A stretch of 64,000 nt of DNA, from NCBI GenBank assembly GCA_944386165.1, contig CALXAA010000006.1, positions 4,557 through 68,556 on the forward strand. The letters are read 5' to 3'. The position numbers and the translations under genes were made by a program. Below are positions 19,671-20,748 of this stretch, one piece after another. Under the pieces are notes generated by a model. It saw only the letters and a list, made by a program, of their open reading frames with translations. It was not told where the DNA came from and ran no database searches. Each line of letters opens with the position of its first letter. The first letter of the stretch is position 1. This DNA is from an uncultured Clostridia bacterium. Its GTDB lineage: Bacteria; Bacillota; Clostridia; TANB77; CAG-508.

Positions 19671-19764
19671 ATAAATATAATTGCTTTGTACAATTATTTA
19701 GGCAATTCTGTTGAATTGTCAAGATTTGACCGCCGAACATTGAAAAAAAATGGAGGTAAACATT

Positions 19765-20673
19765 ATGTCCCATATCGTGAAAAAAACCATCGAAGCCAAC
19801 GCTATTACCCATGGCGGCGTATTCCACGCCGACGAAACGATGGCGACCGCCATCCTGAATAAGGTTTTTAACAACCTTATTCTCTGCCGGACTTTCAAAG
19901 TTCCGGAAGAAGTGGCCGCACCTGTTATCGTTTATGACATTGGTGGGGGCAAGTATGACCACCACCAGAAAGGCGGAAATGGTTGCCGTGAAAACGGTGT
20001 GCCGTACAGTTCCGCTGGTCTGATTTGGCGGGACTTCGGGCGTATGATTCCCGAAGTCTCGGAATCTGCCAATCCCGAGCTGGTATGGTCCTTGATTGAC
20101 AGGGACCTGATCCAGGGCATTGACGCCATTGATAATGGCAAAATGCCCAAGACAGAATATGTCTGCAAGCCGATGACTTTATCGGCTGCCATTTCTGCCT
20201 TCAATCCCACATGGGACAGCCAGGAAGACTCTGACACAGCCTTTATGAAGGCTGTGGAGTTCGCAACTCTTATCCTTGGCAATGCTCTGGCAAATGCCGT
20301 GAGCAAAGCCAAGGCCGAATCCATTGTGGAGAAGGCTATTGACAGGACTGAAGGCCCTGTCATGGTACTCGAAAGGTTCGCTCCTTGGCAGGAATTCATC
20401 TTCTCGTCCAAAAACGAGAAGGCGAATGACATTCTGTTCGTTGTCTTCCCCTCTAACCGTGGAGGGTACAACTGGCAGTGTGTGCCTGCATCGTTGGGCA
20501 GTTTTGCCCAGCGTCATCCTGTTCCGCAGGAATGGAGAGGCCTTAATGGGAAGGCTCTTCAGGATGTAACTGGTGTTGCATCCGCAACGTTCTGCCACAA
20601 CGCCGGCTTCATCGGCGGGGCAGATACTCTCGAGGATGCGATTCGGCTTGCCGAAATCGCTGCCAACAGCTAA
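19765..20673 (+). CDS. MYG1 / UPF0160 family metal-dependent protein (MYG1 exonuclease family)
   Basis: THGGVFHADE near the N-terminus, then DIGGGKYDHHQ. RBS ggagg 9 nt upstream of ATG 19765. The gene is conspicuously GC-rich. Confidence 0.85.
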   Translation: MSHIVKKTIEANAITHGGVFHADETMATAILNKVFNNLILCRTFKVPEEVAAPVIVYDIGGGKYDHHQKGGNGCRENGVPYSSAGLIWRDFGRMIPEVSESANPELVWSLIDRDLIQGIDAIDNGKMPKTEYVCKPMTLSAAISAFNPTWDSQEDSDTAFMKAVEFATLILGNALANAVSKAKAESIVEKAIDRTEGPVMVLERFAPWQEFIFSSKNEKANDILFVVFPSNRGGYNWQCVPASLGSFAQRHPVPQEWRGLNGKALQDVTGVASATFCHNAGFIGGADTLEDAIRLAEIAANS

Positions 20674-20698
20674 AAAAAGGAGGTCAAAACTAACACAA

Positions 20699-20745
20699 CG
20701 AGAAGCTGGAGAAAACAACTGTTTTCCCAGCTTCTCGCTTTTTTG
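20699..20745. terminator. Strong GC-rich intrinsic terminator, usable from both directions
   Basis: cgagaagctggagaaaac / gttttcccagcttctcg, followed by ctttttt. It lies between the convergent MYG1 and UvrD-like genes. Confidence 0.75.
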
Positions 20746-20748
20746 TAT

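Follow-up and report, generated by a model that had tools for sequence, protein, structure and literature searches.

Likely ancient acquisition and maintained GC-richness of a mosaic MYG1 cassette in AT-rich gut Clostridia

We analyzed a 64,000-nucleotide (nt) stretch of DNA from an uncultured Clostridia bacterium (GenBank assembly GCA_944386165.1, contig CALXAA010000006.1, positions 4,557 to 68,556 of the forward strand; below, the window), in which a single gene of the MYG1/UPF0160 family stands out by its base composition. The original prediction took this gene for either a very recent horizontal acquisition or an assembly chimera. Our results favor a different history: MYG1 is likely part of an anciently acquired, self-contained cassette that has long resided in AT-rich genomes, whose alleles are mosaic and whose GC-richness is actively maintained. 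The cassette would consist of a promoter, an AT-rich leader, a Shine-Dalgarno (SD) sequence, the coding sequence (CDS), a 3′ SD-like arm, and a terminator, located in the window as follows.

19642..19670, + strand: sigma-70–type promoter TTGACT-17-TAAAAT with an extended −10 TG at 19662-19663 (10/12 with TG in a consensus scan)
19677..19720, + strand: AT-rich 5′ leader with two palindromes, folding as two hairpins
19725..19734, + strand: 5′ arm of an inverted repeat, TTTGACCGCC, with an anti-SD–like CCNCC; the GC-rich block starts here
19752..19756, + strand: SD sequence GGAGG, 8 nt 5′ of the ATG; an equivalent GGAGG is present in all alleles
19765..20673, + strand: MYG1/UPF0160 CDS, 302 amino acids (aa), TAA stop at 20671-20673
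20679..20688, + strand: 3′ arm of the inverted repeat, GGAGGTCAAA, complementary to 19725-19734, with no start codon behind it
20699..20745, + strand: intrinsic terminator, a hairpin at 20699-20737 followed by a T-run (−27 kcal/mol, z = −4.7)

The GC content is ~52% between positions 19725 and 20745 and 27% in the rest of the window. In a 100-nt profile, it goes from 0.12–0.16 (19450-19700) to 0.46–0.57 (19750-20700) and to 0.23–0.29 after 20750. Outside the MYG1 block, no 1-kb part of the 64-kb window exceeds 0.34 GC, and the top eight 900-nt windows by GC all lie on the MYG1 gene. The abrupt, gene-sized anomaly had therefore been placed correctly, and the hand counts given for it (35/60 G+C in 19801-19860 and 10/60 in 19561-19620) proved exact. 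The MYG1 CDS has a GC content of 0.521, with 0.587 at third codon positions (GC3) and 0.488 at first and second positions (GC12), and a codon adaptation index (CAI) of 0.176, compared to GC ≤0.32, GC3 ≤0.24, GC12 ≤0.43, and CAI ≥0.51 in the 43 host genes of the window (host GC3 is ~0.14, and the mean host GC12 is 0.35). MYG1 thus has the atypical base composition and codon usage of a genomic islet. In ~1 Mb of AT-rich Clostridia DNA, windows with at least 0.42 GC lie almost solely on MYG1. Caution is warranted, since a sharp GC jump and a very low CAI are insufficient as evidence for recent transfer.

The exact 302-aa protein or proteins 74 to 96% identical to it were found on contigs from at least 24 independent assemblies representing two or more species. 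The loci come from Logan (L001-L006, L014, L085, and L087), ENA (L007-L013, L015, L016, L076, and L086), and a JGI collection (L083); L017, L018, and L045 are metagenome-assembled genomes (MAGs) that are GTDB species representatives labeled “uncultured Clostridia bacterium.” By type, the assemblies comprise Logan contigs, SPAdes-type NODE contigs, MEGAHIT-type k141 contigs, and binned MAGs. Over 10 to 12 kb spanning both junctions, L017 and L002 align colinearly with the window at ~98% nt identity. A JGI metagenome search with the leader pattern returned one more locus of the same kind.

At every locus checked in the group with at least 74% identity, the GC content of MYG1 is 0.47–0.52 and that of the flanks is 0.15–0.28. 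At this place, the relatives thus have a gene of similar composition, the observation that had been named beforehand as speaking against a recent transfer. When all MYG1 genes at least 56% identical to that of the window are considered, flank GC is 0.15–0.32, gene GC is 0.36–0.52, and GC3 is 0.16–0.59, and GC12 remains at 0.43–0.49 throughout the clade. Among GTDB species genomes, every relative with at least 56% identity lies in flanks of 25 to 32% GC, and three of three further metagenome clusters looked up are on AT-rich contigs. The clade is widespread in AT-rich (23 to 32% GC) animal-gut Clostridia and nearly everywhere GC-richer than its host. MYG1 genes of other AT-rich Clostridia, with 43 to 51% identity to that of the window, are compositionally native (flank GC 0.25–0.31, gene GC 0.27–0.34, and GC3 0.09–0.25).

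Searches of plasmid, phage, viral, GTDB-species, and metagenome protein collections revealed no near-identical donor, and no near-identical DNA was detected in plasmid and phage collections. On viral contigs, the best MYG1 relative has only 43% identity and is located on a 274-kb contig. Among the loci whose DNA was seen, no homolog with at least 56% identity was found in a GC-rich context. An amino acid composition of the GC type is common to 120/120 best protein matches, and neighbor-joining (NJ) analysis based on an exhaustive search for representatives places the clade among GC-type MYG1 proteins, not beside the AT-native group; the trees are star-like and have no support values, and the placement is a weak indication only. 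The idea of a GC-richer ancestry is plausible in view of the GC12 of 0.49 versus a host mean of 0.35 and of the position in the tree, while the part of the idea that concerned recency did not stand. The GC-type codon and amino acid composition most likely goes back to an old transfer from a Firmicute of ~45 to 55% GC, a plausible origin; the transfer would predate the divergence of several host genera.

The age of the association is also apparent from a native block of genes. In several relatives, a 490-aa protein gene, a LysR-family gene, and a 129-aa protein gene lie upstream of MYG1, with a Sua5 or UvrD-like gene downstream. This block adjoins MYG1 in L007, L015, and L076 and, at 49 to 69% aa identity, in L080 (where it is inverted) and L025. 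Its GC3 is 0.07–0.13, and that of MYG1 beside it is 0.27–0.59. If the adjacency is inherited, MYG1 would have been in AT-rich genomes since before these genera split, and with this much divergence, repeated overwriting of neutral third positions would be expected.

Consistent with the original prediction, no mobility genes or flanking repeats were detected; a search for direct and inverted repeats gave only low-complexity AT matches. No tRNA or Rfam element is present within the 64-kb window, and no recombinase was found within 10 kb on either side of MYG1 in the syntenic contig L013. In annotated neighborhoods, no recombinase was seen, and in the assemblies, no MYG1 inverted relative to its leader. 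These observations speak against an integron cassette or an invertible segment. As to the suggested comparison with an empty site, no intact empty site was found, only deletion remnants (L045 and L074). Some widely transferred accessory genes, e.g., resistance genes, retain a GC content of their own in different hosts (PMC3594838). MYG1 resembles them in being a gene-sized unit with its own expression signals and in occurring in different neighborhoods and species with a composition unlike that of its hosts. It differs from them in that all MYG1 hosts observed are AT-rich, so that averaging over hosts cannot explain ~50% GC, and in that no mobile-element vehicle was seen.

We next consider allelic diversity at the locus. 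Between the window and L013, the synonymous divergence (dS) is up to 0.10 in the flanks and 0.60 in MYG1. Between the window and L015, it is 0.04 in the UvrD-like gene and 0.35 in MYG1. L015 and L076 are ~100% identical over 600 bp upstream and again from the stop codon on, with a MYG1 dS of 1.47. Sliding identity plots revealed blocks of 100% identity alternating with blocks of 45 to 70%, the boundaries of which vary by allele pair, within flanks that are 95 to 100% identical. Such alternation with pair-specific boundaries indicates homologous recombination among deeply diverged alleles. The MYG1 genes of the window and L018 are 94% identical despite a core-gene dS of 0.4–0.7, and alleles therefore cross species. 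Since the transfer, diverged alleles would have been shuffled into mosaics and swapped between strains and species, with flanks remaining near-identical.

The ratio of nonsynonymous to synonymous divergence (dN/dS) in MYG1 is 0.15–0.27. Synonymous diversity (piS) is 0.33–0.55 along the whole gene, and the ratio of nonsynonymous to synonymous diversity (piN/piS) is 0.11–0.55, i.e., below 1 in every 25-codon window, with the lowest values over the catalytic motifs. MYG1 is thus a functional gene under purifying selection whose diversity is mostly silent, and positive selection was rejected as the source of this diversity. Mosaic genes generated by recombination of diverged alleles are known from pneumococcal pbp and Neisseria penA. 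Like these, MYG1 has blocks of ~100% and 45 to 80% identity in near-identical flanks, and its alleles cross species. Unlike in pbp and penA, no selective agent is known, the diversity is mostly synonymous, and all allelic lineages share the GC-rich composition. Among known categories, MYG1 is similar to a mosaic locus with balanced polymorphism.

To estimate whether the GC-richness is decaying, substitutions from G/C to A/T (S>W) were compared to those in the opposite direction (W>S). In native genes, the per-site synonymous S>W : W>S rate ratio estimated from singletons is 3.6, and the native GC3 of 0.14 implies a ratio of ~6. With this host bias, at least 83% of changes in a gene with a GC3 of 0.57 are expected to be S>W. 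Singletons in 11 MYG1 alleles comprise 34 S>W and 22 W>S changes (P ~8e-5 versus the host-bias expectation), and outgroup-polarized third positions in three independent allele pairs comprise 17 S>W and 16 W>S changes (P ~4e-5). The GC-to-AT excess that marks ongoing amelioration of a recent islet is thus absent from MYG1. In the mid-clade, parsimony polarization gave W>S counts no lower than those of S>W; as the outgroups there are saturated, we do not rely on this result.

A natural control is provided by L074 (positions 4200-4470, MAG CALYBE01), where an internally deleted 3′ remnant of MYG1 with a decaying terminator lies upstream of a NUDIX-HIT-GNAT gene. At sites invariant in functional alleles, this remnant has undergone 11 S>W and 2 W>S changes, and its GGAGGT has become GGATGT. 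The pseudogene is decaying AT-ward with the host bias. In contrast, functional alleles separated by a dS of 0.5–1.5 all retain a GC3 of 0.46–0.59. The GC elevation is limited to the segment from the SD to the stop codon, and tracts of 100% identity run hundreds of base pairs into the AT-rich flanks. This confinement speaks against biased gene conversion or another regional process and favors selection on translation or on the coding mRNA, the alternative being replenishment from an unseen reservoir. The GC content in the window’s sub-clade would be stationary because a gene-specific force on the translated region, probably selection on codons or mRNA, counters AT-biased mutation.

In the model of Lawrence and Ochman, a horizontally acquired gene or islet undergoes amelioration. 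MYG1 resembles islets of this kind in its atypical GC content, codons, and amino acids, and in the wider clade, its third positions are nearer to the host than its first and second positions. It differs from them in being present in all relatives, in having no donor, mobility genes, or empty site, and in the balanced synonymous changes of this sub-clade. With MYG1 GC3 of ~0.55, neighbors at 0.07–0.15, and a pseudogene copy drifting AT-ward, the locus represents a natural experiment on bacterial GC content, at which selection, biased conversion, and import from a reservoir make different and testable predictions.

Other histories account for parts of these data. An assembly chimera, in which a read-rich GC-rich fragment was joined to an AT-rich contig, agrees with the compositional jump alone, and its probability is negligible because different studies and assemblers recovered the same junctions independently, in no fewer than 24 samples or MAGs. 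A very recent acquisition by this strain from a donor of 50 to 55% GC would explain both the extreme contrast (CAI of 0.18 and GC3 of 0.59 versus 0.14) and the abrupt boundaries. It is extremely improbable given that all relatives have a gene of the same composition, found in at least two species and in many divergent alleles, that neither a near-identical donor nor an intact empty site was found (the only genomes without an intact gene, L045 and L074, carry deletion remnants), and that the promoter, leader, and terminator show conservation and a native-like character. We consider very unlikely an old transfer that ameliorates neutrally and slowly, in which nothing maintains the GC content and the window’s sub-clade is the least decayed. 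The GC3 series from 0.59 to 0.16 with GC12 retained follows the classical order of amelioration, and the L074 pseudogene does decay AT-ward; however, alleles separated by a dS of 0.5–1.5 all remain at a GC3 of 0.46–0.59, polarized changes are balanced where at least 83% S>W would be expected, and the native block beside MYG1 has diverged so far that neutral third positions would long have been overwritten. GC-biased gene conversion at a recombination hotspot, lifting local GC, would fit the intense recombination at the locus, and a recombination-linked process of this kind was reportedly proposed for bacteria by Lassalle et al. in 2015. It is nevertheless highly improbable as the cause here: the rise is confined to the SD-to-stop segment, flanks reached by the 100%-identity tracts stay at 12 to 25% GC, and a shift of ~45 GC3 points far exceeds reported effects of such conversion in bacteria.

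It is also conceivable, although in our judgment rather unlikely, that the alleles are young and are repeatedly imported from an unsampled population of ~50% GC, with the resident copy supplying homology and no time for amelioration. Mosaic alleles, very recent swaps in identical flanks, and the occurrence of the mid-clade cassette in unrelated neighborhoods would all follow, a donor at compositional equilibrium would yield balanced S/W changes, the codon usage of MYG1 resembles that of a Firmicute of roughly 50% GC, and relatives with GC-type composition exist at 48 to 54% identity. Against such a source, all homologs with at least 56% identity whose DNA was seen (~35 loci in >25 contexts, including GTDB representatives) lie in flanks of 15 to 32% GC, the alleles have an AT-rich native leader in common, synteny with native AT-rich genes holds across genera, and a donor feeding several species should show in the same gut metagenomes. 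The ancient cassette with maintained GC content, which we favor, also has points that weigh against it. The GC-rich sister group is only suggested by NJ trees lacking support values, and the DNA context covers part of >2,000 homologs, so that an unsampled GC-richer reservoir is possible. Polarization by majority or outgroup is confounded by recombination, and some of the changes may be imports from unsampled alleles; the substitution counts are small (33 to 56 changes). The mid-clade cassette (L019, L020, L021, L023, and L077) resides in unrelated neighborhoods, which means that mobility of the cassette is real and that vertical residence rests mainly on the synteny with the LysR block.

The predicted AT-rich promoter at 19642-19670 is genuine: it is kept in all alleles of the clade with at least 67% identity (alignment A1), with a 10-bp deletion in the spacer of L013. 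MYG1 would be expressed from it as a monocistronic mRNA. Around the promoter and leader, ~130 nt of AT-rich DNA (~19603-19725) retain 84 to 96% identity to the window, with long invariant runs, where the CDS dS is 0.03–1.2; the GC content of the transcribed leader is 12 to 24%. The first leader palindrome, ATAATTG-N7-CAATTAT (19677-19697), has the T-N11-A form, and the second is GGCAATTC-TGTT-GAATTGTC (19701-19720). They may represent an operator, leader hairpins, or both. The T-N11-A form is typical of LysR-type sites, and the LysR-family gene described above adjoins MYG1 in L007, L015, L076, L080, and L025; we infer no more from this than that the palindromes could form a LysR-type operator. 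Rfam models gave nothing at or near threshold on the cassette, mid-clade loci, or the whole window. The GC-rich terminator noted originally is present as well; in L007 and L087, its sequence is different but still forms a hairpin. In the mid-clade, MYG1 is preceded by another conserved leader, ~140 nt in length (L019:3990-4205, L020:2087-2302, L021:6616-6831, L024, and L077; alignment A3), which follows a TTGACT...TATAAT promoter, has no Rfam match, and is a candidate cis-regulatory RNA.

An AAGGAGG motif at 20677-20683, directly after the stop codon, had been interpreted as an orphan SD left over from the next gene of a donor operon. An SD-like GGAGG is found after the stop in 11/11 top-clade alleles examined, AAAGGAGGT is invariant downstream of the stop in the 8/8 alleles aligned in A2, and GGAGGT also occurs in another three alleles and, within the mid-clade, at L019-21 and L077. 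The post-stop SD-like sequence GGAGGUCAAA is complementary to UUUGACCnCC just 5′ of the true SD. With its conservation in all eleven top-clade alleles and its complementarity to the 5′ untranslated region (UTR), the element represents a conserved inverted-repeat arm, the two arms enclosing the SD and the CDS, and is not an operon relic. The inverted repeat was seen in the window, L007, L013, L015, L076, L085, L019-L021, and L077. In the mid-clade, the arms differ yet remain complementary (ACAGCUAAAUUAGCC / GGUUAAAAUAGCUGU). Changes within the arms include a G-C to A-U replacement in L077 and three G·U wobbles in L007 that keep the pairing; these were counted by hand, represent few independent events, and would covary alike in a repeat acting at the DNA level. 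In two sub-clades, the duplexes predicted for most alleles between the 5′ and 3′ UTRs have energies of −14 to −31 kcal/mol (z of −2 to −6), and z is near 0 at most other MYG1 loci.

Our preferred reading is that the repeat acts in the mRNA as a clamp between the 5′ and 3′ UTRs, in which the SD-like decoy would capture the anti-SD–like CCNCC; this could affect translation initiation or protect the mRNA ends. Alternatively, the arms may be the DNA-level boundary of an exchangeable module, and between L015 and L076, divergence begins and ends at the two arms. Base pairing between 5′ and 3′ UTRs occurs in bacterial mRNAs such as Staphylococcus aureus icaR and Bacillus subtilis hbs. Similarly to these, MYG1 has a 10- to 38-nt complementarity between the 5′ UTR above the SD and the 3′ UTR after the stop; the pairing involves an SD/anti-SD–like pair and is conserved, a second sub-clade having another complementary sequence. 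In icaR, an anti-SD in the 3′ UTR blocks the real SD, whereas in MYG1, the predicted arrangement is an SD-like decoy in the 3′ UTR and an anti-SD–like CCNCC in the 5′ UTR. UTR complementarity around an SD-like decoy would thus be a candidate new twist on this type of regulation. At the AT-native MYG1 locus L030 (positions 9800-11000), copies of one palindromic terminator-like repeat (TTTGGGACGGTTC...) lie on both sides of the gene and give a very strong 5′/3′ duplex score (z of −8.9); the repeat is probably a dispersed element.

The gene had been described as wedged between two helicase genes, a position thought to hint at a role in nucleic acid processing. The comparison with L013 reverses this picture. 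L013, a contig of the window’s own species (alanyl-tRNA synthetase, sortase, and sigma factor are 100% identical at the aa level, and the core-gene dS is 0–0.10), has the order sigma70-MYG1-NUDIX/HIT/GNAT with no helicase on either side. It is the helicases that are insertions; the breakpoints below were obtained with blastn, and both insertions are variable neighbors, the first lying outside the MYG1 unit.

13473..19595, − strand: insertion relative to L013 (blastn breakpoints, Pfam)
13539-13967, − strand: 142-aa open reading frame (ORF) within this insertion
14000-19501, − strand: 1833-aa protein with ResIII/DEAD helicase domains, within this insertion
20750..23184, − strand: second insertion relative to L013
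20749-23067, − strand: 772-aa UvrD/helicase IV–like protein (Pfam UvrD; NCBIfam helicase IV below cutoff)

The dS of the 1833-aa protein gene is 0.06, and that of the 772-aa UvrD-like gene is 0.02–0.13, between species whose core-gene dS is 0.4–0.7. The helicases, near-identical across diverged species, are thus recently exchanged accessory genes, and helicase genes would have been inserted or lost on either side of MYG1 during its residence. The 772-aa protein matches the PADLOC model of GajB-type UvrD (E = 9e-49), with no GajA partner seen; the 1833-aa protein has only a weak partial PADLOC match. An operon or functional link with MYG1 was rejected, since the helicases are on the opposite strand, are absent from L013, and are replaced by other genes elsewhere. 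Adjacency to them, therefore, says nothing about MYG1 function. No recognizable mobility gene is present in either insertion, and ~1,400 residues of the 1833-aa protein are without a Pfam domain.

The assignment of the gene to MYG1/UPF0160 holds: THGGVFHADE and DIGGGKYDHHQ are present in the translation, and the protein matches Pfam PF03690 (MYG1_exonuc) end to end (E = 2e-69, 235 bits versus a cutoff of 22.1, profile positions 3-317/318). Translation starts at the second ATG, at 19765, and the same start is found in all relatives. NCBIfam and PADLOC models gave no match to MYG1. To our knowledge, bacterial MYG1/UPF0160 proteins are essentially uncharacterized. Solved chains of human MYG1 exonuclease (24ah and others) align over the full protein length (E = 8e-35), and FHADE, DIGGG, YDHHQ, and CHNAGFIGG match the FHxDE, DxGG, DHH, and H-x-x-GF-x-GG motifs of chain 24ah_A. 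All catalytic and metal-binding motifs of the DHH type (N-terminal H..D, DxGG, DHH, and C-terminal H..GF.GG) are therefore present, and they fall in the segments with the lowest piN. Human MYG1 is a 3′→5′ exonuclease that prefers RNA (PMC6582341), and yeast MYG1 is an antiviral factor that restrains the L-A double-stranded RNA virus (PMC10089162). The alignment, the motifs, and this literature together suggest that the product, a DHH-type metal-dependent phosphoesterase, probably has 3′→5′ exoribonuclease or oligoribonuclease activity. It belongs to the same PF03690 family of the DHH phosphoesterase superfamily as the human and yeast (YER156C/Myg1) proteins and has the same motifs; in contrast to them, it is bacterial, shorter (302 versus ~327 to 380 aa, roughly 35 to 40% identity), and encoded by a hyper-polymorphic and compositionally alien gene, properties not described for the eukaryotic genes.

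The catalytic part has been lost in two lineages (L045 and L074), and MYG1 is thus dispensable at least there. In L045 (9900-10430, MAG CALXHG01), MYG1 lacks approximately the first 163 codons and, with them, all catalytic motifs of the DHH side. Its C-terminal 139 codons are fused to the leader, SD, and an in-frame ATG, and the GC content of the remnant is still 0.53. Conversely, homologs P0002 (480 aa; NCBI and ENA), P0121, and P0154 (464 aa) exceed the query in length by ~160 to 180 residues and align to it in two segments, which suggests fusion or partial-duplication variants. Antisense ORFs of 113 to 179 aa across MYG1 were rejected as coding, given the dN/dS of the sense frame. Only one of them is conserved, and it occupies the frame exactly complementary to sense codons, which remains free of stops as long as TTA, CTA, and TCA are infrequent.

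Hyper-diverse mosaic alleles that cross species amid helicase turnover suggest a role in genetic conflict, which would fit the antiviral role in yeast; a cross-species allele pool and changing helicase-type neighbors are compatible with this speculation. In an extended form that we regard as unlikely, MYG1 would be a conflict-related nuclease, e.g., antiviral as in yeast, whose ancient alleles are under balancing selection and shuffled between species, with mRNA selection holding GC3 ~45 points above equilibrium and the UTR clamp with its decoy SD adding to the effect. Selection could then favor expression that uses rare codons, is independent of tRNA supply, or resists nucleases. If this is true, MYG1 would provide a natural bacterial example of synonymous composition under strong selection specific to one gene.

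Several other features of the neighborhood were observed. A triple-domain NUDIX-HIT-GNAT fusion of 462 aa is encoded at 23283-24671 of the window; in L013, which lacks the helicases, it lies directly 3′ of MYG1. In a Simkaniaceae MAG, MYG1 is followed by a small HIT protein (L071:10872-11208), and UPF0160 was reported beside hitL in Chlamydiaceae (PMC1173108). These cases may point to a recurrent association of MYG1 with HIT proteins. Upstream in the window (8074-13378), a 1602-aa alpha-2-macroglobulin–like protein (A2M, bait-region, and Big_5 domains) is encoded by a gene that overlaps the end of an extracytoplasmic function–type sigma-70 gene, and the pair is conserved in relatives. The alanyl-tRNA synthetase at 25940-27694 has only 584 aa, comprising the catalytic and second additional domains and lacking the usual C-terminal part; together with the 27% GC content, this suggests a reduced-genome lineage of gut Clostridia. 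In L013, toxin-antitoxin–like pairs (HEPN with a nucleotidyltransferase at 18163-18815 and RelB with YafQ at 3814-4294) are located <10 kb from MYG1, and the region around the gene appears rich in accessory modules.

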